A stretch of 64,000 nucleotides of DNA, from contig JACROR010000001.1 of NCBI GenBank assembly GCA_016214345.1, positions 1,264-65,263 of the forward strand, read 5' to 3'. This document shows positions 27,030 through 57,012 of this stretch, in pieces. The DNA comes from Candidatus Niyogibacteria bacterium. Its GTDB lineage: Bacteria; Patescibacteriota; Minisyncoccia; JACROR01. The translations under genes were made by a program, and so were the position numbers. Numbering within the stretch: position 1 is the first letter of the stretch; the number at the start of each line of letters is the position of its first letter. Under the pieces are notes generated by a model. That model had not been told where the DNA came from and made no database searches. It worked only from the letters and a program-made list of their open reading frames with translations.

Positions 27030-27043
27030 ATTTTATGGAAAAT

Positions 27044-29468: not shown

Positions 29469-29556
29469 ACTTTACTCCTTTTCTATTTTATTTAAATGAA
29501 CAAACTATATTAGCACCTTATCACAAATCAACCGCTTAATCAAGTTTTTTTATAAT

Positions 29557-30995: not shown

Positions 30996-31013
30996 GGAAT
31001 CCTACTAAATAAT

Positions 31014-33292: not shown

Positions 33293-33300
33293 AAAATTAA

Positions 33301-34494: not shown

Positions 34495-34510
34495 AAAATT
34501 TAAAATTATT

Positions 34511-35964: not shown

Positions 35965-36000
35965 AAAACTTTGAATAAAATTCGCCCTCTAAATAATTCT

Positions 36001-39043: not shown

Positions 39044-39060
39044 TTAAAAAGATAGAATCT

Positions 39061-39095
39061 AAAACCACCAACATTGTTGGTGGTTTTTTTATTTA
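39061..39095 (+). terminator. Rho-independent terminator (aaaaccaccaac-attg-ttggtggttttttt)
   Basis: Perfect 10-bp stem and a 7-T run immediately after the carbamoyltransferase stop. Confidence 0.7.
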
Positions 39096-39135
39096 CTTTA
39101 ACTTCTATGAATTAAGAAACAAACGCATAAGAAAA

Positions 39136-39741: not shown

Positions 39742-39815
39742 ACACCTTAAAAGCTCCTATTGAATACGCGCACGAGTTGAATCCTTAAAATATATAGTAT
39801 AACATATATTTTATT

Positions 39816-41315
39816 ATGAAAGTTTGTTTTGTGCTACAAAATAGATTCGCCTACCCTGGCCACGCAATGATAAAAACCCTCAAAAAAAAATATGGGGAGG
39901 AGGAATTCTGTGGCTATGTTTATACGAGACCGAGTTTCAATTTCCTTACCTCTCAAAAAGAAATAATATATTCGCGTCTACTGCTTGATGACGATATACA
40001 TTCCAAATACAAAACTGAACAACTAGACCTCCCATACATACAATGGATAGAAAAAGAATTTGGACTTCCCAATCTGTGGGCATACGTTGAACTGGATCGC
40101 ATCGTGCGATATGGTTTATTCGTACGAGAATACCCGCACAACACTCCGCCTTATACGCACGAAGAGATGCTTCGCATTATACAAGTAAAATCAAAGGCGA
40201 TTTTGAAATTTTTGGAAGAAGAAAGGCCTGATTTTATAGTTTTTTCTGTCATGGGCGATATCGGCATGCTTCTATTGTATCATATGGCAAAAAAACGAGG
40301 CATCAAAATACTCTACATAACAGAACCGCGCATCAATGCGCAATTTACCATATCCAATTATTACAACGGAATTGATTCCATAGAAGAAGCATTCAAAACC
40401 AACATCGATGAATCATACATAAACCAAGCAAAAAAGTTCCTTGATTCATTTCGTCAAAATCCTGTTTCGCCCAACTCAATCGATACGCCGCAAGCAAGAG
40501 CAATAACAAAAAGGCAACAATTTAAATTTTTGTCTCCAAAAAGATTTATCCGTTCTTTTTTATGGACTATTCGTGTGTTTTTAGATTATGCGAAAAACAG
40601 ACACAAAAACGACTACACTGAAATAAAGCCGTGGTACTATATATTAGATCATGTAAAAAGAAAAATGAGAGTATTACGGGGTTTTAATGATCTCTACGAT
40701 AAAATTGACTTAAAAGAAGACTACGCATTTTTTCCGCTACAAGTAGAACCGGAGATAAGTAGCCTGCTACTTGCGCCATTTTATACAGACCAGTTATGGC
40801 TTGCTAAACAAATAGCCCGATCTCTTCCGATTCATTTTAAACTTTATATTAAAGAACATCCTGCAATGTTTGGCTATCGTACGCGTAGTTTTTACAAAGA
40901 ACTTAAAAAAATTCCAAATGTCAAACTTATTGACCCGTGCATTACGAGTTTCAATATCACAAAGAATGCAAAATTAATAGTTACGCAAACCGGTGGTGTT
41001 GGTTGGGAAGGCTTATTTTTCAAAAAACCAGTAATAACTTTTGGTAATATATTTTATAATATTTTACCGATGACAAAAAAATGTAAAGCGATTGAGGACC
41101 TCCCGCATATAATTAAAGAACAATTAGAAAACTTTCATTACGATGAGAAACTGCTTATAAAACTTATAGCTGCCTCTTACCAAGAGAGCGCGCATGTTGA
41201 CCTTGTGCAAATATGGGAAATTGACGGCGGTGGAAAAATGGATGAAAAAGAAAATCAACTCATGCCTTTAACAGATTTGCTAGCAAAAAAAATGGGATTA
41301 AAAAAGCCTAATTAA
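39816..41315 (+). CDS. Putative GT-B glycosyl/glycerophospho-transferase of the TagB/TagF / capsule-biosynthesis type; candidate nonulosonate transferase
   Basis: 499 aa. C-terminal IKEHPAMFGY...KLIDP...AKLIVTQTGGVGWEGLFFKKPVITFGN resembles the TagF-family core. Architectural paralogue of 22758-24110. Confidence 0.4.
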   Translation: MKVCFVLQNRFAYPGHAMIKTLKKKYGEEEFCGYVYTRPSFNFLTSQKEIIYSRLLLDDDIHSKYKTEQLDLPYIQWIEKEFGLPNLWAYVELDRIVRYGLFVREYPHNTPPYTHEEMLRIIQVKSKAILKFLEEERPDFIVFSVMGDIGMLLLYHMAKKRGIKILYITEPRINAQFTISNYYNGIDSIEEAFKTNIDESYINQAKKFLDSFRQNPVSPNSIDTPQARAITKRQQFKFLSPKRFIRSFLWTIRVFLDYAKNRHKNDYTEIKPWYYILDHVKRKMRVLRGFNDLYDKIDLKEDYAFFPLQVEPEISSLLLAPFYTDQLWLAKQIARSLPIHFKLYIKEHPAMFGYRTRSFYKELKKIPNVKLIDPCITSFNITKNAKLIVTQTGGVGWEGLFFKKPVITFGNIFYNILPMTKKCKAIEDLPHIIKEQLENFHYDEKLLIKLIAASYQESAHVDLVQIWEIDGGGKMDEKENQLMPLTDLLAKKMGLKKPN

Positions 41316-41324
41316 ACATAATTT

Positions 41325-42182
41325 TTGGACATAATATCAAAACTAAGAAAAATTTATAGAAAATTCATTCATCTGCCATGGGTAGACAAATTGATCTATG
41401 TCATTTTGGATGCATTAACCAACATATACGCGCATTCGGCTAAATTTTATTTTCCAAAAAATTATATACGAAAATGGAAATTGAATATGTTGTGGGGCAA
41501 ATATGAACCCGAAACCTACAAACTCTTCAAACACATCGTAAAATCCGGCATGGTGGTGATTGACATCGGCACGCACATCGGATATTTTACCCGCCTATTT
41601 TCAAAACTTACTAAACAGGGCGGTTTAGTCTACGCGCTGGAAGCAGACCCAGAAAATTTTTCTTTGTTGCAAAAAAACACCGCTCATTTGAAAAATGTCT
41701 GCGCAATCAAAATAGCAGTCACAGATAAAAAGGGTGAGATCAATTTCTATAGAAGCGAGAAAACCGGCTGCCACAGCACCATTCCAAATACCGAACAGCA
41801 AAAAGAAGTAATTACCGTTCTCGCCACCGATCTCGACAGTTTATTACTAGATACTGAACAGATATCGAAAATAGACCTGATCAAGATGGACATTGAAGGT
41901 GGCGAAATGGCGGCCCTCCGCGGTATGAAAAAGATCATCGGCGCAAATCCAGAGATCGCGCTCGTCGTAGAATTCAACCCGGGATGCCTAAAAATGGCGA
42001 AGGTTATACCGACCGATTTTATTAAAACATTGCGTGATCTTGGCTTTAAAATTTTCTCCATCCAATCCAAAGATCTAATAGAGATCGGGCCGCAAGAAAA
42101 CTTCCCGGAAAAATATCTCCTACCGGGAGCGACCTTCGTTAATCTATACTGCGTAAAAGGATCGGTACAGGAACGATCCTAA
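41325..42182 (+). CDS. FkbM-family SAM-dependent methyltransferase
   Basis: MVVIDIGTHIGYFT motif I and ...LIKMDIEGGEMAALRG... typical of Methyltransf_21 (FkbM). Confidence 0.8.
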   Translation: MDIISKLRKIYRKFIHLPWVDKLIYVILDALTNIYAHSAKFYFPKNYIRKWKLNMLWGKYEPETYKLFKHIVKSGMVVIDIGTHIGYFTRLFSKLTKQGGLVYALEADPENFSLLQKNTAHLKNVCAIKIAVTDKKGEINFYRSEKTGCHSTIPNTEQQKEVITVLATDLDSLLLDTEQISKIDLIKMDIEGGEMAALRGMKKIIGANPEIALVVEFNPGCLKMAKVIPTDFIKTLRDLGFKIFSIQSKDLIEIGPQENFPEKYLLPGATFVNLYCVKGSVQERS

Positions 42183-43348
42183 ACCAAAGATTCGATCACT
42201 GCGTTCAATTTGCGTCCCAATACGCGATAATCCAAACTCTGTGCGCGTACTAAAATATCTTTGGATAACTTGATTCGAAGACCCTCGTCTTTGCCGAGCT
42301 TCTCTATTTTTTTAGCAAGATCAATGTGATCATTGGGATTGAACGTCAGCGCCGATCCGGCGGTCAGCCACTCGAGCGCCCCGCCACCGGGAATTATACA
42401 AGGAATGCCAAAAGCCATCGCTTCCGTTAAAAGCGCCGAACCATATTCCATCCACCACTTGGGAAAAACGAAGATCTGCGTTGCGAGGAAAAATTCAAAC
42501 ATTTTTTCTCGCGCCACCCAGCCCGGAAATGAAAAATATTTTCCCAAGCCCAGATCGCGCACCATGCTCTCCAAACGCTCCTTGTCTGGTCCGCCGCCGC
42601 TCATCACAACGCGATATTTTTCTTTATTAGAAAGAGTGGCAAATGCTTTGATCACCAGATCGAATCCTTTTTCCGGAAACATACGTCCAGTACAAAATAT
42701 TTGGATGATATCGCAGGAACGCTGACGCCTCTCCACGAACTCATCCATAATATGATGACGCTCTATAATGCCTTTCATGTCCACAAAATCCTCTATCACA
42801 GAAGTTTTTTTGCTGTCCACCCCGAAATCAACATACATTTTCTCAACCATCGGCGTATTGAAAATAAACGCATCCAAATGATTGGCCATAGGAATACCGA
42901 TCCGGCGCTCCATAAATGATCTAATTTTTTTCTTTAAAGTTTTAAAGAAAGAAACACGCGCGGGATTGCCCGTCATATCCGCCCAACAATTAAGACGAAC
43001 GTTAAAAAATGCCGCAACGGGTTTCAGCCCGCCCAACATGCGATAAAGTCCTCCTCCATACAAAAACATATGCCCATCTATATAAAACGCGTCGGCGGCA
43101 CTTTCATATTTTTTCAACAAGCCGTAAATCCCGCTCTGCATGCTAAGTAAAGTCCCTTTGGGAGCGATATTTTCTTCCACCACTTTATACGGCAAGTCTA
43201 TGGAAATTTTATTCGCGCGTGAAAACGCCGTAACCACCGTAACATCATGCTCCTCATCCTGCAAGCTCTTTGCCTTCCAATGCAGATCAAGCACCGAACC
43301 GCCGGCGGTTTCAAAATTCAATTTTGAGGTGATTAAAATAATCCTCAC
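42179..43348 (-). CDS. Glycosyltransferase family 4 (GT-B)
   Basis: C-terminal EYGSALLTEAMAFGIPCIIPGGGALEW GT4-like motif; 389 aa. Confidence 0.75.
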   Translation of the reverse strand: MRIILITSKLNFETAGGSVLDLHWKAKSLQDEEHDVTVVTAFSRANKISIDLPYKVVEENIAPKGTLLSMQSGIYGLLKKYESAADAFYIDGHMFLYGGGLYRMLGGLKPVAAFFNVRLNCWADMTGNPARVSFFKTLKKKIRSFMERRIGIPMANHLDAFIFNTPMVEKMYVDFGVDSKKTSVIEDFVDMKGIIERHHIMDEFVERRQRSCDIIQIFCTGRMFPEKGFDLVIKAFATLSNKEKYRVVMSGGGPDKERLESMVRDLGLGKYFSFPGWVAREKMFEFFLATQIFVFPKWWMEYGSALLTEAMAFGIPCIIPGGGALEWLTAGSALTFNPNDHIDLAKKIEKLGKDEGLRIKLSKDILVRAQSLDYRVLGRKLNAVIESLV

Positions 43349-43743
43349 TATATAAAAACTTTATCGTCAACAAAAGGGCCATTCTTCAACTCGAATATTT
43401 CCGCGTCCTGCATAACACGCACCCCATGACCTCCGCGCAATATGATCAAGGCCTCACCCGCTTTAACATAAACATATTTAAAGATCTTTTTATTAGGCGC
43501 ATAAAAATCCACCCTGATCTTTCCTCTTCTCACTACCAAACATTCCTGAAGCATCTTAGTAATTCTTCTTTTAGAAATATGCGCATGCGGTTTGATCTGA
43601 TAACCTTTTTTATGTTTCAAAGTGAGTAATTGCAAAAACTCTGCGTCACTCGTAACAGGAACGGAGCCCTTGGGAAGGGCCTTTACACGAATCGCGGCCA
43701 GGATGTTCTTGTAAAAAATTTTTTCCACCCCAACACTATTCAT
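43348..43743 (-). CDS. Cupin-domain protein (candidate sugar-nucleotide epimerase/ketoisomerase of the small-cupin type)
   Basis: 131 aa; HAHISKRR...GKIRVDFY...GEALIILRGGHGVR suggests a small beta-barrel cupin. Its start overlaps the upstream stop. Function is inferred from context only. Confidence 0.35.
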   Translation of the reverse strand: MNSVGVEKIFYKNILAAIRVKALPKGSVPVTSDAEFLQLLTLKHKKGYQIKPHAHISKRRITKMLQECLVVRRGKIRVDFYAPNKKIFKYVYVKAGEALIILRGGHGVRVMQDAEIFELKNGPFVDDKVFI

Positions 43744-43746
43744 TGA

Positions 43747-44814
43747 TCAAGAAATGTGAAATCTACGATCTTCGCTATGAACATTTTTTAATTTGGCCTC
43801 ACGACTCACATAATTAAAATCCTCTTCGATCATCATCTGCGTCAATTTACTGAAAGTTACTCGCGGCTGCCAGCCCAAAACCTCGCGCGCCTTCGCCGCA
43901 TCGCCCAACAAAAGGTCCACTTCATTCGGTCTGAAATGCTTGGGATCTATTTCAATAATGGTTTTGCCGGTTATCTTATCAATACCCTTTTCATCCAAAC
44001 CGGAACCAGTCCACGCAATCTCTATATCCAAATGCTTTGCCGCCCCCTCCACAAATTCCCTAACGGTATGCGTCTCACCAGTGGCGATCACAAAATCGTC
44101 CGGCTTGTCATGCTGTAATATTTTCCACATCGCCTCTACATAATCTTTGGAGTGCCCCCAATCGCGCTTAGCATCCAAATTGCCAAGCATTAATTTCGGC
44201 TGTATGCCCAATTTAATGTTGGACAACCCTAAAGTGATCTTGCGCGTCACAAAATTAAAACCGCGACGCGGCGACTCATGATTAAAAAGTATGCCATTGG
44301 AAGCAAAGATGCCATAGCCCTCACGGAAGATTTTCGTAATATAAAAAGCGAATACCTTTGAGAGACCGTACGGCGATTGCGGATTGAATTGCGTGATCTC
44401 GTTCTGGGGAACGGCTAAAACTTTTCCGAACATCTCGGACGAACTTGCCTGATAATATTTTGTTTTTAAGCCGAGAGTACGAATGGTTTCCAAAATGCGC
44501 AACGGTCCCAGCGCGTTTACATTCACCGTATACTCCGGTTTATCAAAACTAATCCTGACATGACTTTGAGCGGCCAAGTTATAAATCTCGTCCGGTTTAA
44601 CAACGTACAAAATGCGCGTCAGATTGGAGCTGTCCGAAAGATCCCCATACATCATGTACAGATTGGGATGCGAGACATGATCAATGCGCTGCGTATTGGG
44701 CATGCTCGCGCGCCGCTGAACGCCATAAACTTCATATCCTTTTTCTAACAGAAGTTCGGTTAAATAAGAGCCATCTTGTCCGGTTATTCCCGTTATTAAT
44801 GCCTTTTTTGTCAT
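43747..44814 (-). CDS. gmd: GDP-mannose 4,6-dehydratase family (possibly GDP-heptose 4,6-dehydratase given context)
   Basis: [28 protein letters not shown]-terminus, ...ASSSEMFG... and NHESPRRG are classic GMD motifs. Confidence 0.85.
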
Positions 44815-44860
44815 CTTTTACAATATAGCAAATAATAAAAAAGTTGCAATATGAATCATT

Positions 44861-45664
44861 TTATGCGATAAAATTTTTTATCAATGATTCAATATCCTCC
44901 GCATCCAAACTCCATCCTAATGCACCATAATTCTCTTTCAAATGTTCCACACTACTAGCCCTCGGTATGGCCACAATGCCCTTGGACATTGTCCAATTCA
45001 ACGCGACCTGAACAGGAGTTTTGTCGTATTTTTTTGCCAAATTTCGCAATAATTCGTTGTGCTCTTCCGCCAATTTACCCTTAGCAAGAGGCCTATATGC
45101 GATGACTTGAATATTATTTGCCCGGCAATATGGAATAATATCCTGTTCGACAGAACGTTCTATTAAATTATATTCCACCTCATTTGCCGCAAGCTTCGTA
45201 TGCTCTAAATATTTTTGCGCCTCCTTCATCAATGCCACCGAAAAATTACTTACCCCTATATGATGCGCCAAGCCCTTGTCCGCCAAATACTCCATGGCTT
45301 TCATGGTTTCTTTAAGAGGCACTTCCTCGTTCGGCCAATGCACCAAATAAAGATCAATGTAATCCGTCCGTAACCGTTTCAGACTACCTTCGGCCGCTTT
45401 CAAAACATCGTCATAACGAAGATGAATCTTCCAAACCTTGCTTATTATAAAAATTTCTTCTCGTTTATAACCCTGTATGGCTTCGCCCACGATCTCCTCC
45501 GTCATTCCCTCGCCATATAATTCCGCCACATCGATCAGCCGAATACCCACATCTAAGCCCGCCCTTAAAATCTCTACGGATTCTTTGATATTGGACGAAT
45601 CTTTCTCCCATTTTCCACCCATCCCCCAAGTACCCATTCCCAATAGTGGCATTTCCATGATCAT
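44861..45664 (-). CDS. Aldo/keto reductase
   Basis: IDVAELYG and LYLVHWP AKR signature motifs; 267 aa. Confidence 0.8.
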   Translation of the reverse strand: MIMEMPLLGMGTWGMGGKWEKDSSNIKESVEILRAGLDVGIRLIDVAELYGEGMTEEIVGEAIQGYKREEIFIISKVWKIHLRYDDVLKAAEGSLKRLRTDYIDLYLVHWPNEEVPLKETMKAMEYLADKGLAHHIGVSNFSVALMKEAQKYLEHTKLAANEVEYNLIERSVEQDIIPYCRANNIQVIAYRPLAKGKLAEEHNELLRNLAKKYDKTPVQVALNWTMSKGIVAIPRASSVEHLKENYGALGWSLDAEDIESLIKNFIA

Positions 45665-45670
45665 CCAAAC

Positions 45671-46882
45671 TTATTTGATTATTACTTTAGGAGTCGGGAT
45701 AATAAATTTTCCTTTATAGCCGTTCCTCCTGATCTTTGGGATAAGTTCATCGGCTAAATTCCAGGATAGCATCAGCGCGTACTCGGGCTGTTCGGCAAAA
45801 AGCCGCGCCTCTTCCACCACGGGAATGCGCATACCGGGAGAAAAAAGACCAATTTTTAACTCGCTTTTCTCTACCAAATAATCAATGATGTCAGGCCCTA
45901 GCCGGCAGAAATTCAACAAAGTGTTTCCCTTGGCGGGCGCGCCTATGCCCACAATTTTTTTACCGGCGCTTTTTTGTTCCAAAATAAATTTCTGCAAGTC
46001 TAATTTATTTTGGCGCACTCTCGCCGCAAAATCCGCGTAAGCCCTGCCGCCATATAACCCAAAACGTTCTTCCAAATCCAACAAGCCCTTCACGCCTTGC
46101 CCGATTTCACGACTTCCTTTTTTGGCGGCGTAAACGCGGATGGAGCCACCATGGCTTGGAATGCGTTCCGCATCAAATATTTCCATACCAAATTTATCAA
46201 ACAAAATATTTAACGGGCGCAGAGCATAATAACGTAAATGTTCGTGATAAATAGAATCGTATTGCAATTTTTCCACCAGATCCAAAACATATCCGGATTC
46301 TGATACAAAAACTCCCTCCGCATCCAATAATTCATAAATTCCCGCCATGAAATCATCAAGGCCGATCACGTGCGCAAGGACATTGGTGGCAGTAACCACT
46401 TTAGCCCTTCCGTTTTCTTTCACCACCCGCTTGGCAACCTCCAAAGAGAAAAAATCGTTTATAGTAGGAATATTGTTCGCCAAAGCCAATTTAGCGGCGC
46501 TGGAAGGATCAACCCCCAAAACTTTCACACCAAACGGCATATAATATGAAAGAAGCGTGCCATCATTAGAACCCACGTCCACCGCCAGATCTCCTTTTTT
46601 CAAATTAAAACGACCGACCAGCGATCCTACCAAAGTTTTAAAATTAACTTTCAACGCGTTATTTGTGGCGGTGTTATAAACATAATCACGGAACAGCTTC
46701 TCCGGATCAACCGCATAATTTAATTGCGCCAATCCGCAACTCTGGCAAACACAAAATTCCAAAGGATAAACAACTTCGGGTCGTGACAAATCTTCCCTGC
46801 GCAAAAATGCATCACTGGGCGGCTGCTGCCCCAGATCCAACACGGACACTAAATTTTCTTTTCCGCAAATATAACAAGCCAT
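45671..46882 (-). CDS. Sugar C-methyltransferase family (TylC3-like; zinc-ribbon + SAM MTase + C-terminal C-methyltransferase domain)
   Basis: N-terminal CYICGKENL...CQSCGL zinc ribbon and SAM motif I LAVDVGSNDGTLL. The ~400 aa length matches NDP-hexose C-methyltransferases. Confidence 0.7.
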   Translation of the reverse strand: MACYICGKENLVSVLDLGQQPPSDAFLRREDLSRPEVVYPLEFCVCQSCGLAQLNYAVDPEKLFRDYVYNTATNNALKVNFKTLVGSLVGRFNLKKGDLAVDVGSNDGTLLSYYMPFGVKVLGVDPSSAAKLALANNIPTINDFFSLEVAKRVVKENGRAKVVTATNVLAHVIGLDDFMAGIYELLDAEGVFVSESGYVLDLVEKLQYDSIYHEHLRYYALRPLNILFDKFGMEIFDAERIPSHGGSIRVYAAKKGSREIGQGVKGLLDLEERFGLYGGRAYADFAARVRQNKLDLQKFILEQKSAGKKIVGIGAPAKGNTLLNFCRLGPDIIDYLVEKSELKIGLFSPGMRIPVVEEARLFAEQPEYALMLSWNLADELIPKIRRNGYKGKFIIPTPKVIIK

Positions 46883-46886
46883 GTAT

Positions 46887-48716
46887 TTATTTAATCAATG
46901 AATATCCAAATAAATTATTAGACGTAAATACTAACTCTGGACCGCTTAATTGGTCAATGACATTCTTCGGCAAAGGACCTACGGATAAAATATAATCTAA
47001 CCTGTAACGCATCAACTCTTTCTTGAAGTCTCGCGCCATAAATTGCCGATAGTCCGCCGGAAATCGCGCCAGACGTTCTTCCAGTAATTTATCGGAAAAA
47101 TCCGGAAAATCTTTGACATTGAAAAGTCCCTGCCAATTAGTATAGAGGCATCCCGTCGCTTCTCCCCTGTTTTGCCGTAAATAATCCTCAATGCCATTTG
47201 CCGGCACACCCTTTAATCGCAACTCTATCAAATAATTATGAAGCGACCGCTCATAGGGCATTAGGGAGAAGGTTTCTGTCGAAGCATATCGGTTGCAATG
47301 GCTTAACGCAGGAATTAAGACATTTAGCGCGTCTCCCTCTGGTCCATCTTCGCGTATTAAAACCACGCAATCTTTTTCTTGAGAATTTAACCACGCGAAA
47401 AGCGGCGCGTAAGACTGCTGATGCAAATTATATGCATAGCCGTGGCGATAAGCGCTCGCTTGCGTATAAATCCCGTACGATAAGGATACAACTATGATAA
47501 TGCCAATGCTCAACTTCCAAAAAAATAAAGATTCTTTTCGGACAATATTGTACAAAATCAACATCACCACCACTATGGCAAGCGGTATGGAATATTGCAC
47601 GAAATGATACGGCCAAATTGTTCTACCAGTTATAATCTGTTCGCTAAAAGCCCACAAAGAACCGAAAATAAAAGCAAAGCAGAATAAGTGCCAGTTCCGG
47701 AACGAACCAAAAATTCTATTTCTCAAAGCCGCCGTTTTATCCGAATACTTTAATGCGGAAAATAGAACTGCCAAAACATATGCCACCAAAACCGCAAGCA
47801 TCAATTTATTCAGCAGAGGATAATGCGTCAAGAAAAGCCCGCTTCGCAGAACCGATTCGGCATACCAGGAACTTTTGCTCGCCTGCCAAGACGAATACCA
47901 ATAAGGCGACGCGAGCAAAATGGCCGCAAGCAATGTATATGTTAAATTTTTAGCGGTCTGAAATTTCCCTTGAATTGAATACATTAAAATAAGCATCGCC
48001 AGGACGGACAAGGCCATGCCCCAGCTGAAAAAATAACTCCCCATCATCAAAGCCAAAAAAACGGATGCACTGAATATACTCACCGCCCGTCGCCCCGACT
48101 GCTGAATGATTTTCCAAACCAAGATCAAAAAAGAAAACAGGAATATCGCCCCCAATATCGGATTTACCGGCCGCGCCCACAATAAAAATCCGCCTATGTC
48201 ATTTTGACCTGAAAGCACCGACCATAAATGCCGATAATCGACCAGATCATAACCAAGAACAATAAAAAGCGCTCCAGCTATGGCATTAATCTTACGCGCC
48301 AAAAAATCGTCGCCTTCGCTTAGGCGATAAATCAAAAAATATGCCAACAAAAATAAAATTAACGGTAAAATAAATTTGCTTGCCAATAAAATATCTTTTG
48401 CCGGCCAACGCAACAAAAAAGCCGGGATGGCATAGAACATCTCGCCTACCGGAGGCGATAACGGCCATTCATTTTTGTATTCAAAAAAGAAAGGCGACCC
48501 AAGCGCCGGATGTCCATCCAAAATATCCTGTATGCGCGCCAGATAAGAACCTTCGTTCGGAGTCTGCATCGCGGGCACCCCCTGATAATGCGATCCCAGA
48601 GAAAAAATTAAAAATATATAAGGCGCCAAATAGATCACGCCAACCAGCAATGCCACGCAATAGGCCAGCTTGTGCCTTATAACGCTCTCCCAAAAATAAT
48701 TAACAGCATATCGCAT
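46887..48716 (-). CDS. Large polytopic membrane protein with C-terminal soluble domain (candidate GT-C-fold glycosyltransferase / polymerase)
   Basis: 609 aa with about 12-13 predicted TM helices, then a ~170 aa hydrophilic C-terminal domain. An acidic EGDD motif lies in an early loop. No family was recognised with confidence. Confidence 0.55.
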   Translation of the reverse strand: MRYAVNYFWESVIRHKLAYCVALLVGVIYLAPYIFLIFSLGSHYQGVPAMQTPNEGSYLARIQDILDGHPALGSPFFFEYKNEWPLSPPVGEMFYAIPAFLLRWPAKDILLASKFILPLILFLLAYFLIYRLSEGDDFLARKINAIAGALFIVLGYDLVDYRHLWSVLSGQNDIGGFLLWARPVNPILGAIFLFSFLILVWKIIQQSGRRAVSIFSASVFLALMMGSYFFSWGMALSVLAMLILMYSIQGKFQTAKNLTYTLLAAILLASPYWYSSWQASKSSWYAESVLRSGLFLTHYPLLNKLMLAVLVAYVLAVLFSALKYSDKTAALRNRIFGSFRNWHLFCFAFIFGSLWAFSEQIITGRTIWPYHFVQYSIPLAIVVVMLILYNIVRKESLFFWKLSIGIIIVVSLSYGIYTQASAYRHGYAYNLHQQSYAPLFAWLNSQEKDCVVLIREDGPEGDALNVLIPALSHCNRYASTETFSLMPYERSLHNYLIELRLKGVPANGIEDYLRQNRGEATGCLYTNWQGLFNVKDFPDFSDKLLEERLARFPADYRQFMARDFKKELMRYRLDYILSVGPLPKNVIDQLSGPELVFTSNNLFGYSLIK

Positions 48717-48751
48717 TATTTCAATATTATCATAAATAATGGCTTAAATGT

Positions 48752-48784
48752 ATTAAAAATCCCTCGCCTTATTCCGGCGAGGGA
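48752..48784 (-). terminator. Rho-independent terminator (ccctcgcc-ggaataag-gcgaggg + T-run on minus strand)
   Basis: Immediately downstream of the transaldolase-family gene stop at 48790. Confidence 0.6.
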
Positions 48785-48789
48785 CCATC

Positions 48790-49527
48790 TTATTTAAGCC
48801 AATTTTCAAAATCTTTCAAAAACTGACCAACAACTTCGTCGGTCTTGAAATGTAAAATCATGTCAGGGAAAAATTTGGGAGGCACGGTAACAATGTGCGC
48901 TCCGGCTAATCCCGCCGCTATCACATCAGTACCATTACGGATACTGCCAACAATAATTTGCGTATCCGGATAAGAACTGTCCAAAAGAGAGCGTACTGCC
49001 GGAACCACATATGCCGGATCAAAATCCTCTTCTTTCATGGCGCCTTTTTTAATAAGTTCGTTTTTTTGCTGAGCGAAATTTTTTTTCGTCCCACCGTCGC
49101 TTATGCGCCCCCAAAAAAGACTCACGAAACTCGCCCCTGCCGCCGCGGCCATCAATGCCTGCGACACGCTCATATTGCAAGTGCAATTAACCGAGAAGCC
49201 CTTCCGGCTTAGCTTGCGTATCACTTCCAACTCATCCCAGCCAATAGGTACTTTTATGCTTAACTGGGGATGTTTAAAAGTTTCCTGAAAGGTTTCGGCT
49301 TGCCGTAAAATCTCTTGAGGATCTTTGGAGAATACCTCCACGCTCAAATGGGCGTCGGGCTGATATTGTTTTATAAGCTCTACAATTTTACCTATATGCT
49401 CGTTAAAATTCCCCTTGGGCTCTTTGGCAAAAAGCGAAGGATTGGTGGTCACGCCCCTCACAAATCCACGCTTAAGCGCGTCTTCTATGTCTGCTAAACG
49501 AGCGGTATCTACAAATAATTTCATCAC
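48790..49527 (-). CDS. Transaldolase / fructose-6-phosphate aldolase family protein (supplies sedoheptulose-7-P)
   Basis: KLFVDTARLADIE...GVTTNPSL N-terminus is typical of short TalC/Fsa-type transaldolases. Confidence 0.75.
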   Translation of the reverse strand: MMKLFVDTARLADIEDALKRGFVRGVTTNPSLFAKEPKGNFNEHIGKIVELIKQYQPDAHLSVEVFSKDPQEILRQAETFQETFKHPQLSIKVPIGWDELEVIRKLSRKGFSVNCTCNMSVSQALMAAAAGASFVSLFWGRISDGGTKKNFAQQKNELIKKGAMKEEDFDPAYVVPAVRSLLDSSYPDTQIIVGSIRNGTDVIAAGLAGAHIVTVPPKFFPDMILHFKTDEVVGQFLKDFENWLK

Positions 49528-50081
49528 ACACCTCCTTTCTCCATATGTGTAATCATTTTTGCCGCAAGCAATAGATTGTTAGCGGCATAATTACAAATAA
49601 CGCCAACATTATAATCCGTTCTTATAAGCACAGTTTTGCAACCCGCCGCTTGTCCCGCCAACATATCGTTTTCAGTATCGCCGATCATATACGACCGGCC
49701 AAGATCAATATTCCATTTTTCCGCTGCCGCCAAAAGCATGCCGGCTTTTGGTTTTCTACATTCACAACCAGCATCCCTGTCATGATAACAAACAAAGATG
49801 TCGTCAAATCCTAAACCGCGTACTTGCGCCATAATATTGTTATAATCTTCTTTCGTAATCATACCGTAAACAAGATCTGGCTGATTAGTAACCAAGATTC
49901 GCAACAAATCCATCTTCCCCATTAGAGTTAAAGCTTTTGGAATATTTGGCTTTATGCGAAATTCCACCAAATTATAGGGAGCAGTGAAGCGCACCTCTTT
50001 GCCAACAACAAAAAAACCTTGACCCCGATCTATCATATCGTTGACAACGCCATCGCGATCAATAAAAACCGCGCGCCTCAT
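49524..50081 (-). CDS. gmhB: D-glycero-D-manno-heptose 1,7-bisphosphate phosphatase (GmhB; HAD IIIA)
   Basis: HAD motif I FIDRDGVVN, the zinc-binding CYHDRDAGCECRKPKAGM motif characteristic of GmhB, and GDTENDMLAG. Confidence 0.8.
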   Translation of the reverse strand: MRRAVFIDRDGVVNDMIDRGQGFFVVGKEVRFTAPYNLVEFRIKPNIPKALTLMGKMDLLRILVTNQPDLVYGMITKEDYNNIMAQVRGLGFDDIFVCYHDRDAGCECRKPKAGMLLAAAEKWNIDLGRSYMIGDTENDMLAGQAAGCKTVLIRTDYNVGVICNYAANNLLLAAKMITHMEKGGV

Positions 50082-50689
50082 ATCAGCTCTTTCAACCGGA
50101 AAGTGATCAGATGCGTTAAGAGAACATGCAAAGATTCAACCAACGGCGTAGATTCCACGGGCACCACCACGCAATGATGGCACATGGTCTTCATAGCTCC
50201 GCCATCAAATCCGGAAAATCCTATGGTTAAACCGTCATTGTCTTTTACATACTGGATCGCCTGAAGCAAATTCTGCGACCAAGCGCCATCTTTGTCCGAA
50301 CCCGAACCGCCGTGAACGCTGAAAGCGATAAGAATATCGCCGGGAGCATAAAGGGTCCGCAGCTGTTCCACAAAAAGGCTTCCCTTGCCCCAATCGTTCA
50401 CCAAAGCGCTCGTCAAAGGTATATTATCCACCAAAGAAATAGCCGCAATTCCTTTGCACCCAGCGTTGGATACCACGGTCTTCATTAAATCTGCAGCGAA
50501 ATGGGTCGCGGTGGAAGCAGAGCCGCCGTTACCGATAAGAAATACTTGTTGACGGCTAAACCAGGCATGAAATAATGCTTCTATGATCTCTTCCAACTCC
50601 GGCTTGGCCAATTTAAGCAACTCAGTCGCTCGTTCAGTATCCGCAAAAAATTTCTTAAAATAAGCATCACTATCATTCTGGTAAGACAT
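50078..50689 (-). CDS. gmhA: Sedoheptulose-7-phosphate isomerase (GmhA; SIS domain)
   Basis: SIS motif FLIGNGGSASTATHFAADL and the GmhA-like length (203 aa). RBS AAGGAGGA upstream. Confidence 0.85.
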   Translation of the reverse strand: MSYQNDSDAYFKKFFADTERATELLKLAKPELEEIIEALFHAWFSRQQVFLIGNGGSASTATHFAADLMKTVVSNAGCKGIAAISLVDNIPLTSALVNDWGKGSLFVEQLRTLYAPGDILIAFSVHGGSGSDKDGAWSQNLLQAIQYVKDNDGLTIGFSGFDGGAMKTMCHHCVVVPVESTPLVESLHVLLTHLITFRLKELI

Positions 50690-50773
50690 ATCGGTCCTCC
50701 TTGATCTATTTGATTATTAAATAACTTTCTTGACTTGTCATTATCAAAGCACGGAAACAAAATTTTATCAATA

Positions 50774-50806
50774 CAAAAGCGGGCAGTATTTCTGCCCGCT
50801 TTAAAT
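50774..50806 (-). terminator. Rho-independent terminator (aaagcgggcag-aaat-actgcccgcttt)
   Basis: Perfect 11-bp stem immediately after the hddA-like stop, with a T-run on the minus strand. Confidence 0.65.
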
Positions 50807-51793
50807 TCAAAGATTTATTACCGTGGCCCGCGCGCCCATCTCATCGATCTGCAAATTCATTTCCCGCAGATCAAAGTTCTTCAGCGCGCTTTGCACGGAT
50901 CGCTTATCGCTCTCCGAACGGCAATAGAACATAAAATATCCTCCGCCGCCCGCGCCCATGATCTTGCCGCCCAGCGCTCCGGCCCGTTTGGCGCTCGCGT
51001 ATACATCATCTAACCAAGCGTTAGTCATATTGACGGACATCTCTTTTTTAATATTCCAATGCTCATCCATCAATGCCCCAAAGGTGTCCAGATCCCCCCG
51101 CGTAAAAGCGCCGAGTATCTCTTGCCCAATCTTCTTGGTCTTGTGCTTTAATTCAAGCACCCTTTGATGATCCTGCGCGTCTAAAAGCGACTTGCTGTTG
51201 CGCCTGATACCGGTGTAATAAAACAAAGTATTGAGCAAAAACGTGTCTATCGTTTCAGGCGCGATCACCGGCCTGCTCACAGAGACCTTGCCATCCTTAT
51301 CAATATCCAAAACCACGAAACCGCCCAAAGCGCAGACATATGGATCCTGTTTACCGTCGGGTAAGTCCAAATTTTGCGTCATCAAGAATGATTGCTCCGC
51401 CGCTTCCAGGTTGTTCATCTCGGCGCCTTTGTATAAGGACAGTCCCTTTAAAAGGCCGACCGAACATGCTCCGGAAGACCCAAGACCGGTCCCCGCGGGA
51501 GTATCCGCCTTGAAAGACACAGCGATTTTGTTCTGGATTCCCATCATTTTAAGCGCCTCTTTGCCCAAGATATGCTTTAAACTGCCGGCGGAAGACTCAT
51601 ATTCATACTGCGTATAATGCATATGAACATAATCGTCGCTCACGGGTTTTTTGATAAAAATATCCACGTACATATTGATAGTCGCCGCGAATATAAAGCC
51701 CCCGTATTTTTGATAATAAGACGGCATATCCGTGGAACCTCCGCCCAAAGATATGCGAAACGGTGTCCGACTGAGAATGATCGGTGAATTCAT
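50807..51793 (-). CDS. hddA: GHMP kinase, D-glycero-alpha-D-manno-heptose 7-phosphate kinase-like (HddA)
   Basis: GHMP ATP-binding motif PAGTGLGSSGACSVG, N-terminus TPFRISLGGGSTD and a length of 328 aa. Clustered with gmhA/gmhB. Confidence 0.75.
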   Translation of the reverse strand: MNSPIILSRTPFRISLGGGSTDMPSYYQKYGGFIFAATINMYVDIFIKKPVSDDYVHMHYTQYEYESSAGSLKHILGKEALKMMGIQNKIAVSFKADTPAGTGLGSSGACSVGLLKGLSLYKGAEMNNLEAAEQSFLMTQNLDLPDGKQDPYVCALGGFVVLDIDKDGKVSVSRPVIAPETIDTFLLNTLFYYTGIRRNSKSLLDAQDHQRVLELKHKTKKIGQEILGAFTRGDLDTFGALMDEHWNIKKEMSVNMTNAWLDDVYASAKRAGALGGKIMGAGGGGYFMFYCRSESDKRSVQSALKNFDLREMNLQIDEMGARATVINL

Positions 51794-51887: not shown

Positions 51888-52778
51888 ATGAAGATCTCCG
51901 ATCCCCAATTCATTAATATATTAAGCTGCCCATTGTGCCAAAACGATCTGCATGACAGAAAAGATAATATGGCGTGCGAACAATGCGGCATGTCTTACCC
52001 TATCCGGACATCTGCAATATATCTGGCGCCAAAAGGCGATCAACTGCTCCGCCAGTACCGCGAAGAAGCCCGATCTCCGATCAACCGCTTCAAAGCTCTT
52101 ATCAAAACATGGCCGTGGCTATTTGATATTCTGACACTCGCCATCGGCAGCGTGTCTTTCTTCGGACAATCCGCCAAAACCACCATCAAAAAAACATATG
52201 GTAACAATACACAAGACAAGATCATCATCAATATCGGTTCCGGCATAAGCCGGCCTCACCCGGCAGCGCTTAATTTGGACATCTTCCCGTTTAAAAATGT
52301 GGATATAGTGGCCAGCGCCACGGCACTTCCCTTTAAAGACAATTCCGTGGATATGATCATAAGCGAATCAACTCTGGAACACATCCCGGACGGAGAAACC
52401 GCCATCAAAGAGATCATGCGCACGGTAAAACCGGGCGGCATGGTTTACATCACCATACCGTTTTTAATGCCGTTCCACGCTTCTCCCAACGACTACATGC
52501 GCTTGACCCATGAAGGCTTGAAACAAAAATTTTCGGCATTCGAGCCGATCAAAATCGGTATGAGGGGCGGACCCGCTTCCGCGCTGATCACCTTTCTGAT
52601 GTATTTTTTCGCGCTTCCCTTCTCCCTAATATCGGAAAGTGCTTATAATTTCGCGACTTATTTTTTTATGGTAATTCTATCGCCGCTTCGCATTTTTGAC
52701 CTGTTATTTTTCCTCTTTCCCAAATCCATAGAAACCGCGACCATCATATACTTCGTCGGCAAGAAAAAAAATATTTAA
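51888..52778 (+). CDS. Class I SAM-dependent methyltransferase with N-terminal Trm112-like zinc ribbon and C-terminal TM segments
   Basis: CPLCQNDL...CEQCGM zinc ribbon, SAM motif I IINIGSGIS and ...MIISESTLEHIPD. A hydrophobic C-terminal tail is present. Confidence 0.75.
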   Translation: MKISDPQFINILSCPLCQNDLHDRKDNMACEQCGMSYPIRTSAIYLAPKGDQLLRQYREEARSPINRFKALIKTWPWLFDILTLAIGSVSFFGQSAKTTIKKTYGNNTQDKIIINIGSGISRPHPAALNLDIFPFKNVDIVASATALPFKDNSVDMIISESTLEHIPDGETAIKEIMRTVKPGGMVYITIPFLMPFHASPNDYMRLTHEGLKQKFSAFEPIKIGMRGGPASALITFLMYFFALPFSLISESAYNFATYFFMVILSPLRIFDLLFFLFPKSIETATIIYFVGKKKNI

Positions 52779-53698: not shown

Positions 53699-53701
53699 TA
53701 A

Positions 53702-56955: not shown

Positions 56956-57012
56956 TGCCAGTCTCCTTCGCACACATTATTGTTAAAGTACTTCGTTACA
57001 TTAACAAAAAGA

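Follow-up and report, generated by a model that had tools for sequence, protein, structure and literature searches.

A surface-glycan island of Candidatus Niyogibacteria may combine two separate nucleotide-sugar branches

Does a run of heptose-type sugar genes that leads into a GDP-mannose 4,6-dehydratase gene set encode one pathway or two? The question is raised by a contig of Candidatus Niyogibacteria, a member of the tiny-genome CPR lineage Patescibacteria, from which a stretch of 64,000 nucleotides (the window) was analysed. The first-pass annotation had proposed a complete GDP-heptose pathway, the product of which would be remodelled by a dehydratase of the GMD family, an aldo/keto reductase (AKR), a C-methyltransferase and a cupin. 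Its gene positions and family labels hold: all ten minus-strand open reading frames exist at the coordinates given, and their families are borne out by Pfam and NCBIfam, or for the cupin by a modelled fold. As to the pathway, we lean with modest confidence towards two separate nucleotide-sugar branches, both serving a single surface-glycan island of this genome. The first, branch A, is more likely an uncharacterised, transaldolase-started route to a seven- or eight-carbon sugar, and the second, branch B, more likely leads from GDP-mannose, by way of an ordinary dehydratase, to a 6-deoxyhexose bearing a C-methyl group. Gene order, family membership, folds, the terminator described below and the co-occurrence counts are observed; the substrates and products, the sequence of steps, the carbon number of the branch-A sugar and the branch served by the membrane glycosyltransferase of the region are inferred from them.

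The core of branch A is a single transcription unit of four genes, here called unit 1. It opens with an HddA/WcbL-like GHMP sugar kinase (50807-51793; Pfam GHMP_kinases_N and _C), at which a promoter-like site is found (51876-51847), continues with a divergent GmhA-like SIS-domain ketose-phosphate isomerase (50078-50689; Pfam SIS_2) and a GmhB-like HAD-IIIA phosphatase (49524-50081), and ends with a transaldolase (TAL) of the TAL/FSA family (48790-49527; Pfam TAL_FSA, 142 bits), all on the minus strand, as are the genes described below. Genes of the unit overlap, which suggests translational coupling. These heptose-type genes had earlier been divided between two adjacent operons, a division that does not stand, for the four form one unit followed by an intrinsic-terminator-like hairpin and U-run (48755-48784, minus strand). 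The hairpin lies directly after the TAL stop codon, between units 1 and 2; its RNA folds at -21 kcal/mol (z-score -4.59, with 0 of 200 shuffles equally stable), UUUUU comes next, and its stem was also picked up by a scan. Terminators may leak, a caveat on the separation of units 1 and 2.

The description of a complete GDP-heptose pathway was overstated, since the cassette enzymes fall far short of every one of the curated equivalog cutoffs for GmhA (TIGR00441; 81.7 bits, cutoff 209), HddA (127.5, cutoff 600), GmhB (97, cutoff 178) and HddC (65, cutoff 300). The best solved relatives of the kinase are heptose kinases (3k85, 4usk, 4usm and 4n3o, 107-129 bits). The phosphatase, in which the zinc loop CxH...CxC is seen, passes TIGR01656 (93 bits against 84) and TIGR01662 (59 against 44.6), remains below the other GmhB models as well (79 against 150, 69 against 250), and has D,D-heptose 1,7-bisphosphate phosphatases as solved relatives (47-56 bits). 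Alignment of the isomerase to GmhA (1tk9, 1x92) places an Asp (HFAADL) at the position of the catalytic Glu, retains the His, and reveals a 9-residue insertion in the phosphate loop STSGNS. There is support for a route of the GmhA/HddA/GmhB type leading to a nucleotide-activated sugar of higher carbon number, for which D-glycero-D-manno-heptose is a candidate identity only. In the predicted order of steps, the dedicated transaldolase would build the entry ketose phosphate, either sedoheptulose-7-phosphate (C7) from erythrose-4-phosphate or octulose-8-phosphate (C8) from ribose-5-phosphate; the isomerase would convert the ketose phosphate to an aldose phosphate, the kinase would phosphorylate the anomeric C-1, the phosphatase would remove the terminal phosphate, and the nucleotidyltransferase of the cassette would then activate the sugar as an NDP-sugar.

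In alignments to 3r8r and 3s0c, Asp7, Glu64, Lys92 and Phe138 of the transaldolase are of the transaldolase type and not of the FSA type. These are the catalytic residues of a normal transaldolase, and CPR bacteria depend on the non-oxidative pentose phosphate pathway, both of which would suit a housekeeping pentose-phosphate enzyme that lies in a glycan operon by chance, beside an otherwise ordinary GDP-heptose pathway. Such an accident is very hard to credit, however, in view of the overlapping genes and of the distribution of the protein: its subfamily, as defined by motifs, is rare and accessory (128 of 185,579 species genomes), a count that any housekeeping enzyme of the Patescibacteria should greatly exceed. 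Among TAL-centred loci from 80 species, moreover, a SIS or HAD gene lies no more than 2.5 kb from TAL in 63, and the order SIS-HAD-TAL is shared by several phyla (Patescibacteria, Methylomirabilota, Chloroflexota, Planctomycetes and delta-proteobacteria).

The same rarity is consistent with a product of eight carbons. The make-up of the cassette (transaldolase, isomerase, kinase, phosphatase and nucleotidyltransferase) would fit the logic of the lincomycin GDP-octose pathway equally well, these being the enzyme classes of LmbR, LmbN, LmbP, LmbK and LmbO, the roles of which have been assigned (PMC4351081); the likeness drawn here is one of enzyme class. Ribose-5-phosphate and a C3 unit would give octulose-8-phosphate, a beginning that we regard as possible though doubtful, and the later steps, isomerisation by the SIS enzyme and then the action of kinase, phosphatase and nucleotidyltransferase to supply a surface glycan with an NDP-octose, are just as tentative. 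The cassette is extended in loci of Gemmata (L083), Magasanikbacteria (L004) and Peregrinibacteria (L006), each with an SDR epimerase and an oxidoreductase of the Gfo/Idh/MocA family, and the last also with a DegT aminotransferase; these additions belong to the classes of LmbL/Z, LmbM and LmbS. Transketolase already makes sedoheptulose-7-phosphate, so a dedicated transaldolase should be unneeded for heptose, and both types of SIS partner are non-canonical as GmhA (47-82 bits against 209), that of the window having in addition the insertion in its phosphate loop. Weighing against eight carbons, heptose enzymes are the characterised proteins to which the kinase, isomerase and phosphatase are most closely related, small genomes could use a dedicated transaldolase just to raise their supply of sedoheptulose-7-phosphate, and we know of no octoses from bacterial surface glycans. 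The broader assignment of branch A, to a sugar of seven or eight carbons, is the one carried forward here.

An operon upstream of unit 1 would complete branch A. Its sugar-1-phosphate nucleotidylyltransferase (57013-57687; Pfam NTP_transferase) matches best, among NCBIfam models, the archaeal GlmU N-domain (147 bits) and AglF (113 bits), and scores 40-62 bits against its solved relatives RmlA, ManC and GlmU; it resembles archaeal GlmU-N, AglF and RmlA more closely than HddC, which leaves a GDP-linked product as a candidate only. The neighbouring B12-binding radical SAM enzyme (55432-56973; Pfam B12-binding and Radical_SAM) meets no NCBIfam cutoff and possibly carries out C-methylation or another radical modification of the sugar. 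It is a frequent partner of the cassette, with homologues of 52-68% identity in 11 of the 28 close loci that are well flanked (TAL identity no lower than 55%, and 7 kb or more of sequence on either side). A GT2 glycosyltransferase resembling the polyprenyl-phosphate enzymes ArnC, GtrB and DPM1 (54622-55377; Pfam Glycos_transf_2) has ArnC, PgfS and dolichyl-phosphate hexose transferase as its best NCBIfam matches, all under cutoff. It is followed by two GalE-type SDR epimerases (52775-54622; Pfam Epimerase), SDR2 (53702-54622) and SDR1 (52775-53698), which score 215-223 bits against GalE (cutoff 262) and have UDP-hexose 4-epimerases as best solved relatives. L002, L036 and L047 have the same GT2-SDR-SDR triple (62-73% identity), and L062 retains the GT2 and SDR1 at 64-68% identity. 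A small membrane protein of the GtrA family (57716-58375; Pfam GtrA_DPMS_TM), present also in four other loci (L008, L021, L023 and L035), may handle a polyprenyl-phosphate sugar in a flippase-like role. The NDP-sugar of branch A would probably be tailored, placed on polyprenyl phosphate by the GT2 enzyme and handled in its carrier-bound form by the GtrA protein.

Branch B would correspond to unit 2, which comprises in order a membrane glycosyltransferase gene taken up below, the C-methyltransferase, the AKR, the GMD, the cupin and a GT4 glycosyltransferase. The dehydratase (43747-44814) exceeds the TIGR01472 gmd equivalog cutoff (504 bits, cutoff 415) and matches solved GMDs at 329-443 bits, compared with 123 bits for the solved GDP-heptose 4,6-dehydratase 7us5; by sequence it falls with the true GDP-mannose dehydratases, far from 7us5. 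GMD-clade placement together with a fucose or rhamnose synthase partner had been named in advance as evidence that would count against a heptose substrate. The placement is found, and no canonical partner (Fcl, Rmd) is, the two SDRs scoring 68-78 bits against Fcl (cutoff 500). Neither ManB nor ManC is encoded within the 64-kb window, so that the supply of GDP-mannose is not visible there; the missing ManC is uninformative, as three other loci with a GMD-cupin pair (L168, L169 and L170) also lack a nearby ManC.

The C-methyltransferase (45671-46882; Pfam Methyltransf_13, Methyltransf_23 and Methyltransf_14) is a SAM-dependent NDP-4-keto-hexose C-3 methyltransferase of the TylC3, TcaB9, MtmC and KijD1 family, with full-length matches to MtmC (4rv9, 268 bits), KijD1 and TcaB9, four invariant zinc Cys residues and a YHEH motif. 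Its relatives usually have an NTP-transferase and a dehydratase-type SDR gene as neighbours, and it therefore most likely acts on the 4-keto sugar that the dehydratase beside it, here GMD, produces. The AKR (44861-45664; Pfam Aldo_ket_red, 235 bits) is DkgB-like (170 bits, cutoff 327) and adjoins the C-methyltransferase also in L002 and L032; it could conceivably be the 4-ketoreductase of this branch, a role for which we know of no direct precedent in the AKRs. The 131-residue cupin (43348-43743) has no Pfam match and scores 28.8 bits against the WbuC cupin model (cutoff 42), and its fold comes from an AF2 model (pLDDT 86.6) with generic cupin matches only in Foldseek (E of 0.02 or more; TM 0.48-0.50 to the FdtD ketoisomerase domain). 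The 14 relatives found share invariant H53xH55 and Q66-E67, and the protein may be an epimerase or ketoisomerase acting on GDP-4-keto-6-deoxymannose. The GT4 enzyme (42179-43348; Pfam Glycos_transf_1 and Glyco_transf_4), which closes the unit and is next to GMD also in L011, L168 and L169, would transfer the resulting sugar. GMD would convert GDP-mannose to GDP-4-keto-6-deoxymannose, the TylC3-type enzyme would methylate C-3, the cupin would epimerise or isomerise, and a reductase, possibly the AKR, would reduce C-4, leading to a virenose- or evalose-like GDP-6-deoxy-3-C-methylhexose. A branch of GMD, C-methyltransferase, reductase and cupin resembles the route to virenose from GDP-mannose, with GMD and a TylC3-type methyltransferase, that has been proposed for Coxiella (PMC3539893).

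Whether the second gene set modifies what the first one makes is addressed by the company that each keeps. The adjacency on which the earlier proposal was built is real: the two sets share a strand inside 10 kb, in an order that is repeated in a second Niyogibacteria genome (L002). The cassette is followed by a GMD-GT4 pair in L011 too, hence in two lineages, which is more than expected were the sets unrelated. Heptose genes are clustered with a GMD-like dehydratase in Campylobacter, Yersinia, Burkholderia and M. tuberculosis (Rv0112-0115), and the lack of ManB, ManC, Fcl and Rmd noted above would likewise suit a pathway in which the cassette makes GDP-D-glycero-alpha-D-manno-heptose and the GMD, cupin, C-methyltransferase and AKR convert it to a 6-deoxy, epimerised and C-methylated heptose. 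We nevertheless judge this single route improbable. In the 28 well-flanked close loci the cassette is consistently represented (SIS in 27, HAD, GHMP and GT2 in 25 each, NTP-transferase in 23) and the other set is scarce (C-methyltransferase in 4; GMD, AKR and cupin in 1 each), so that the cassette stands without GMD in 27. Conversely, where GMD (62-70% identity) is followed by the cupin (49-56% identity) in L168, L169 and L170, none of the three has TAL, SIS, HAD or GHMP genes within 8 kb. To these are added the affinity of the dehydratase for GMDs over 7us5, the terminator between the units, the nucleotidyltransferase that is unlike HddC and the four heptose-type enzymes below their cutoffs. 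The assertion that the AKR and C-methyltransferase belong to the heptose-modifying classes of Campylobacter and Yersinia also fails, as to our knowledge those sets include neither. Of the 43 loci with TAL identity of at least 55%, 6 nevertheless have a C-methyltransferase relative no more than 10 kb from the cassette, usually without GMD, so a C-methylated branch-A sugar is possible in some lineages.

Between the transaldolase and C-methyltransferase genes, as the first gene of unit 2 and preceded by promoter-like sites, lies a gene for a polytopic protein of 609 residues (46887-48716) without a match in Pfam or NCBIfam, and with 193 homologues of which all named ones are CPR 'hypothetical proteins'. 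Its AF2 model (pLDDT 85.8, pTM 0.89) confidently predicts a GT-C-fold glycosyltransferase: the top 20 Foldseek matches in the PDB are all GT-C enzymes (DPY19, PglB, STT3, AglB, ALG9, ArnT, AftD and EmbC), with probabilities of 1.00 for the first 17 and 0.93-0.96 for ranks 18-20, at TM 0.33-0.48. D67 and E79, within the first external loop, are invariant. Such an enzyme would take a polyprenyl-phosphate-linked sugar as donor and pass it to an extracytoplasmic acceptor, and it lies near the polyprenyl-phosphate-type GT2 and the GtrA protein; the branch-A sugar might be transferred outside the membrane by a GT-C enzyme such as this one. GT-C genes occur in 15 of the 28 well-flanked close loci. 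Homologues accompany the cassette and the GMD-cupin loci alike, which makes assignment of this protein to branch A uncertain. The first-pass annotation had overlooked this protein, which sits between the two gene sets.

It is clear that the ten minus-strand open reading frames between 42179 and 51793 are real and were given the right family labels in the first-pass annotation, as was the NTP_transferase gene at 57013-57687 (also minus strand). The observation made there is largely real, and its interpretation, that a complete GDP-heptose pathway feeds a GDP-mannose dehydratase (GMD), an aldo/keto reductase (AKR), a C-methyltransferase and a cupin to give a C-methyl deoxyheptose, is only partly supported. 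The main interest of the region lies not in a C-methyl deoxyheptose but in a conserved, apparently transaldolase-initiated cassette for a higher sugar, linked to a new CPR-specific family of putative GT-C glycosyltransferases. The GHMP kinase (50807-51793), SIS isomerase (50078-50689), HAD phosphatase (49524-50081) and transaldolase (48790-49527; HZC14_00245) are encoded in a single tightly packed unit of overlapping genes, not in the two operons over which these heptose-type genes had been distributed. A promoter-like site lies upstream of the unit at 51876-51847, and a 9-bp GC-rich hairpin followed by UUUUU stands immediately 3' of the transaldolase stop codon, with a predicted folding energy of -21 kcal/mol (z = -4.6; 0 of 200 shuffled sequences equally stable). 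Downstream of the hairpin is a second unit, in which a 609-aa protein (46887-48716; HZC14_00240), skipped in the first gene set and lying between the transaldolase and the C-methyltransferase, precedes the C-methyltransferase (45671-46882), the AKR (44861-45664), the GMD (43747-44814), the cupin (43348-43743; HZC14_00220) and a GT4 glycosyltransferase (42179-43348); the transaldolase, the 609-aa protein and the cupin bear the locus tags of Candidatus Niyogibacteria MAG proteins to which each is 100% identical. A Logan assembly contains the same contig, and the source is thus a member of the Patescibacteria (CPR).

A Schiff-base lysine accompanied by Glu and Phe marks true transaldolases, and Gln with Tyr marks FSA-type aldolases. 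Alignment with 3r8r and 3s0c places Asp7, Glu64, Lys92 and Phe138 of the window protein at the catalytic positions, which makes it a true transaldolase and not an aldolase of the FSA type. It reaches 142 bits on the Pfam model TAL_FSA, against 27, and misses the equivalog cutoff of fsa_talC_mipB (138 against 246). Close relatives (at least 58% identity) are numerous in CPR metagenomes, and in a pattern scan of 185,579 species, each represented by one genome, the subfamily turned up in only 128, which makes it accessory and not the housekeeping enzyme of the pentose-phosphate pathway; that housekeeping reading is rejected given the rarity of the subfamily together with its conserved synteny. 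A tblastn search with the transaldolase against plasmids returned one irrelevant 35% match, and a literature search on the CPR pentose-phosphate pathway yielded nothing usable. In the CPR members of the subfamily about 27 extra residues (147-173 in the window protein) directly follow the phosphate-binding GRxxDGG segment, and non-CPR members, of about 220 aa, lack them yet keep the SIS-HAD-transaldolase arrangement.

Open reading frames were called in 80 transaldolase loci and compared with the window proteins, and in 63 of them a SIS or HAD gene lies within 2.5 kb of the transaldolase, usually in the order SIS-HAD-transaldolase. Carriers of the cassette include Patescibacteria of many classes as well as Methylomirabilota, Chloroflexota, Gemmata, Verrucomicrobiota, Binataceae and delta-proteobacteria. 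Among the 28 loci that have at least 7 kb on both sides and a transaldolase identity of at least 55%, SIS is present in 27, HAD, GHMP and a GT2 glycosyltransferase in 25 each, the NTP-transferase in 23, the 609-aa protein in 15, a B12-binding radical SAM enzyme in 11, the C-methyltransferase in 4, and GMD, AKR and cupin in one each. These counts define the cassette as a conserved module of which the nucleotidyltransferase, GT2, 609-aa protein and radical SAM enzyme are regular partners, and of which the GMD set is not. The radical SAM enzyme (55432-56973, minus strand) is 52-68% identical across cassette loci (L008, L011, L015, L020-L023, L027, L035, L036, L042, L044, L047, L051 and L059, the L-numbers denoting comparison loci from other genomes); it reaches no curated family cutoff, its best match being the Sden_1168 P-methyltransferase family at 155 against 575 bits, and it may methylate or rearrange the sugar. 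The GT2 gene (54622-55377) and two GalE-type SDR genes (52775-53698 and 53702-54622), all on the minus strand, form a sub-module of their own at 52775-55377. The triple recurs at 62-73% identity in a second Niyogibacteria genome (L002) and in L036 and L047, and L062 has GT2 and the first SDR at 64-68% and the second SDR at only 36%. Among solved structures the SDRs match UDP-hexose 4-epimerases best, so the triple may belong to a UDP-sugar and not to the product of the cassette.

The classical GDP-D-glycero-alpha-D-manno-heptose pathway of S-layer and capsule glycans (GmhA, HddA, GmhB and HddC) has four superfamilies in common with the cassette, in the same logical order, and the closest solved structures of the kinase (107-129 bits), isomerase and phosphatase are all heptose enzymes. 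Given these nearest relatives, a chemistry of ketose-phosphate isomerase, anomeric kinase and terminal phosphatase is a well supported prediction. What had been described as a complete GDP-heptose pathway stands as regards superfamilies and type of chemistry; as a specific assignment it does not, all four enzymes missing the equivalog cutoffs by wide margins. The SIS protein scores 81.7 bits on GmhA (TIGR00441; cutoff 209.45) and the kinase 127.5 on HddA (NF049969; cutoff 600), while the HAD phosphatase falls short of three GmhB models (NF006506, 97.0/178; TIGR00213, 79.3/149.6; NF050049, 69.3/250 bits) and passes only broader HAD-IIIA and histidinol-phosphatase-domain models. The nucleotidyltransferase, at 65 bits on HddC (NF049965; cutoff 300), scores higher on the archaeal GlmU N-domain (146.7 bits) and AglF (112.8 bits) and is nearer to these and to RmlA than to HddC. 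The features expected of GmhA are, in E. coli numbering, the catalytic residues Glu65 and His180, together with a phosphate loop of sequence STSGNS; alignment to 1tk9 and 1x92 indicates that the window protein keeps the His and differs in having Asp for the catalytic Glu (HFAADL), Glu at the Gln172 position and a 9-residue insertion in the phosphate loop. Two different SIS types accompany the transaldolase, and neither is a canonical GmhA (47-82 bits against 209). The second, which has a GVGGSAANASHAVNDFRKI motif, is about 28-32% identical to the window SIS and looks unrelated to it, and replaces the window type beside the same transaldolase and phosphatase (L021-L024, L030, L033, L035, L058, L060, L064, L068, L069, L071, L075, L077, L080-L083 and L087). 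Had the second type, which is seen in non-CPR loci, been a canonical GmhA, heptose would have been favoured; at 47-65 bits against 209 this was ruled out.

The classical GDP-heptose pathway has no dedicated transaldolase, whereas in the cassette this enzyme is integral and conserved. Sedoheptulose-7-phosphate is a normal product of transketolase, so that a dedicated, conserved transaldolase would be hard to justify for a plain heptose; it would fit exactly the need of an octose route. To our knowledge, only one characterised pathway, the lincomycin route, groups a dedicated transaldolase gene with those of a GmhA-like isomerase, GHMP kinase, HAD phosphatase and nucleotidyltransferase. The cassette has the same clustered set as this lincosamide GDP-octose route and is identical in class composition to its transaldolase LmbR, isomerase LmbN, kinase LmbP, phosphatase LmbK and guanylyltransferase LmbO (PMC4351081). 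Differences are also evident: the window isomerase lacks the carrier-protein fusion seen in the lincomycin route; the cassette sits in a glycan island with GT2, GtrA (57716-58375, minus strand) and GT-C genes and not in an antibiotic cluster; and GalE-type SDRs and the radical SAM enzyme take the place of Gfo/Idh/MocA enzymes. Counterparts of the LmbL/Z and LmbM classes, Gfo/Idh/MocA and SDR epimerase genes, are found in related loci. Such an extended cassette is common to a planctomycete (Gemmata sp. IIL30, L083 2904-10737) and two CPR classes (Magasanikbacteria, L004 357-8735; Peregrinibacteria, L006 1583-8603). The first two have GT2, SDR epimerase, adh_short, Gfo/Idh/MocA, GHMP, NTP-transferase, SIS, HAD and transaldolase genes; L006 has part of the set only, with an inositol-monophosphatase-family gene where the HAD phosphatase is expected and a DegT aminotransferase in addition. 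With their Gfo/Idh/MocA, SDR epimerase and aminotransferase genes, the extended cassettes come closer still to the Lmb route.

As to the product, opinion is evenly balanced on whether the cassette makes a heptose; an octose or another non-classical sugar, argued by analogy with the lincomycin route, is a tentative proposal and on the whole an unlikely one. Stated in full, and with the same reserve, this proposal would make the cassette a widespread, undescribed counterpart of LmbR/N/P/K/O in Patescibacteria and scattered Planctomycetes, Methylomirabilota, Chloroflexota and delta-proteobacteria, producing an NDP-octose or non-classical higher-carbon sugar for surface glycans that the CPR-specific GT-C family would deliver via polyprenyl phosphate, the cupin being separately a new GDP-4-keto-6-deoxymannose epimerase or 3,4-ketoisomerase. 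No publication describing the transaldolase cassette was found in the available literature searches, and the cassette could represent a first instance of octose synthesis beyond antibiotic pathways.

Family assignments, folds, gene order and co-occurrence are observed here, and the substrates, products and order of steps that we infer for the cassette would be as follows, whether the sugar is a heptose or an octose. The transaldolase would form a ketose phosphate, which the SIS isomerase would convert to an aldose phosphate; the GHMP kinase would then give the 1,ω-bisphosphate, the HAD phosphatase the sugar-1-phosphate and the nucleotidyltransferase the NDP-sugar, with tailoring possibly by the SDRs, the radical SAM enzyme and methyltransferases. 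GT2 would load the sugar on polyprenyl phosphate, GtrA would handle the carrier-bound sugar, and a GT-C enzyme such as the 609-aa protein would transfer it. The 609-aa protein has 193 homologues, every named one a CPR 'hypothetical protein', and no Pfam or NCBIfam match. AlphaFold models it with confidence from 25 sequences (pLDDT 85.8, pTM 0.89), and all of the 20 PDB entries that Foldseek ranks highest are GT-C enzymes (DPY19, PglB, STT3, AglB, ALG9, ArnT, AftD and EmbC), with a probability of 1.00 for ranks 1-17 and 0.93-0.96 for ranks 18-20 and TM scores of 0.33-0.48. In the 25 sequences D67 and E79, between the first and second membrane helices, are invariant and are candidates for the conserved acidic residue that GT-C enzymes have in the first extracytoplasmic loop. 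By its predicted structure the protein is a GT-C fold glycosyltransferase, and the model assigns to a CPR-specific family of roughly 600-aa 'hypothetical' membrane proteins both a fold and a probable function. The combination in one island of a GT2 of the ArnC/GtrB/DPM1 type, a GtrA-family protein and a GT-C-fold enzyme recalls three-component systems of polyprenyl-phosphate glycosylation such as GtrA/GtrB/GtrC, ArnC/ArnT and DPM1/PMT, with the difference that this GT-C protein belongs to no sequence-level family. Homologues also stand next to GMD-cupin units without the transaldolase cassette (L168 2624-4384, 48% identity; L169 8390-10117, 35%), and the family is thus not tied to one donor sugar.

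The second half of the earlier proposal was that the GMD set acts on the heptose made by the cassette. The two sets lie on one strand within 10 kb, their order is kept in the second Niyogibacteria genome, in a third lineage (L011) the cassette is followed by a GMD-GT4 tail, and 6 of the 43 loci with a transaldolase identity of at least 55% have a relative of the C-methyltransferase no more than 10 kb from the cassette. An SDR 4,6-dehydratase and a cupin beside heptose-type genes are also what the 6-deoxyheptose sets of Campylobacter, Yersinia and Burkholderia present (DmhA, WcbK and DdahA; DdahB and MlghB; SDR reductases), systems in which we know of no AKRs or C-methyltransferases. In contrast to the dehydratases of those sets, the window enzyme is by sequence a true, GMD-clade enzyme: it scores 504.3 bits on TIGR01472 (equivalog cutoff 415) and 329-443 bits against solved GMDs of bacteria, plants and humans (7kf3, 1db3, 2z1m, 1t2a, 1n7g and 1rpn), compared with 122.8 bits against 7us5, a GDP-D-glycero-D-manno-heptose 4,6-dehydratase, and 135 against the reductase Rmd (2pk3), and so is not nearer to the heptose dehydratase than to the GMDs, as an enzyme of the DmhA/WcbK/DdahA type would be. 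This clade placement (443 against 123 bits) had been named beforehand as telling against a heptose substrate; the fucose or rhamnose synthase partner named with it is not found, the neighbouring SDRs being GalE-type and scoring only 68-78 bits against 500 for Fcl. The cupin likewise contrasts with DdahB and MlghB in lacking a dTDP_sugar_isom (RmlC) Pfam match and in belonging to a small family of its own. No ManB, ManC, Fcl or Rmd is encoded within the 64-kb window, which might seem to favour a supply of substrate from the cassette, but the absence of ManC says little, since GMD-cupin loci elsewhere (L168-L170) also lack a nearby ManC. In these three loci the cupin directly follows a GMD 62-70% identical to that of the window, GT4 adjoins the pair in two of them, and no transaldolase, SIS, HAD or GHMP gene lies within 8 kb, an arrangement that identifies GMD-cupin(-GT4) as an independent unit. 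With a GMD-clade dehydratase, a GMD-cupin pair that occurs independently and GMD in only 1 of the 28 cassette loci, a C-methyl deoxyheptose made jointly by the two sets is not supported, and action of the GMD set on the cassette product appears improbable. Two testable units replace an attractive but weakly founded idea.

In both the window and L002 (complete genome CP066691.1) the C-methyltransferase and AKR genes lie just upstream of GMD, and Niyogibacteria have extended the independent GMD-cupin unit with these two genes. The C-methyltransferase has an N-terminal zinc domain (PF08421, 77 bits against 31), a SAM domain and a C-terminal Methyltransf_14 domain (PF08484, 163 against 23.5), above the Pfam cutoffs, with the four invariant zinc Cys and the YHEH motif conserved; over its full length it is homologous to MtmC, KijD1 and TcaB9, which are C-3 methyltransferases (268 bits to MtmC, 4rv9, over residues 2-400). 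Its relatives in 80 metagenomic loci are mostly beside an SDR dehydratase-type gene and a nucleotidyltransferase, the arrangement expected for methylation of the 4-keto product of a neighbouring dehydratase, which here is GMD. All solved TylC3/TcaB9/MtmC members known to us use dTDP-sugars, and it is the adjoining GMD that suggests a GDP-sugar here. A close parallel is the GDP-virenose (6-deoxy-3-C-methylgulose) route of Coxiella burnetii, itself an in-silico proposal, in which the GMD CBU_0689 and the TylCIII-type methyltransferase CBU_0691 are joined by an epimerase/reductase (PMC3539893). Both loci cluster a canonical GMD with a TylC3-family C-3 methyltransferase among surface-glycan genes, and the predicted product is in each case a 6-deoxy-3-C-methylhexose; the window has an AKR and a small cupin where the Coxiella route has an Fcl-type epimerase/reductase. 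The branch would begin with conversion of GDP-mannose to GDP-4-keto-6-deoxymannose by GMD, followed by methylation at C-3, epimerisation or isomerisation by the cupin, 4-keto reduction, for which the AKR is a candidate, and transfer of the product by GT4. Such a branch would yield a sugar resembling virenose and open GDP-linked C-methylation to biochemical study.

Only 14 proteins make up the family of the cupin, and H53xH55 and Q66-E67 are invariant among them. The window cupin has no Pfam match, scores below the RmlC/DdahB-type, WbuC (TIGR04366, 28.8 bits against 42) and FdtA family models and has no PDB sequence match at E <= 10. Its AlphaFold model is confident (pLDDT 86.6), and Foldseek returns generic cupins only (E >= 0.02), the higher TM scores (0.44-0.50) being those of the sugar-nucleotide ketoisomerase/epimerase cupins FdtD and WbcA. 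Locus L170 (6848-10815) encodes, in order, GMD, cupin, a DegT aminotransferase, GT2 and an acetyltransferase, which mirrors the FdtA/FdtB/FdtC logic of 3-acetamido-3,6-dideoxyhexoses downstream of a GMD; this gene order hints, by analogy, that the cupin could be a GDP-4-keto-6-deoxymannose 3,4-ketoisomerase.

Patescibacteria live attached to other cells and the surface is thus central to their biology, and we know of no experimental work on their surface glycans. Most of the window beyond about 8.5 kb belongs to a cell-surface glycan island, which includes a Bac_transf priming transferase, several GT4 enzymes, many methyltransferases and an AsnB homologue; tRNA and Rfam scans of the whole window gave no match. 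A nonulosonic-acid-type cluster occupies 21669-36000, with two NeuB genes (21669-22610 and 31014-32087), two CMP-transferases (20893-21600 and 29557-30372), a HisH/HisF-like pair (34511-35964), a class-III aminotransferase, a SPASM radical SAM enzyme and an ABC exporter. Its GC content is 35-37%, compared with 41-48% in the flanks, and at about 42 kb, where genes converge (42179-42182), there is a steep rise in GC. The stretch 37220-41315 encodes a NodU/CmcH-type carbamoyltransferase (37220-39043), a DUF218 protein and a KpsC/KpsS-like Capsule_synth protein (39816-41315), a combination suggesting that this CPR bacterium makes glycans that are carbamoylated and Kdo-like or nonulosonate-linked. 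At 16990-19203 a 737-aa Wzy_C (O-antigen ligase/polymerase-like) protein has TPR repeats fused at its C terminus. The sole plus-strand gene inside the minus-strand string, at 51888-52778, encodes a methyltransferase with an N-terminal Trm112-like zinc ribbon, and homologues of it (32-59% identity) occur in many cassette loci, mostly just before the GT-C gene.
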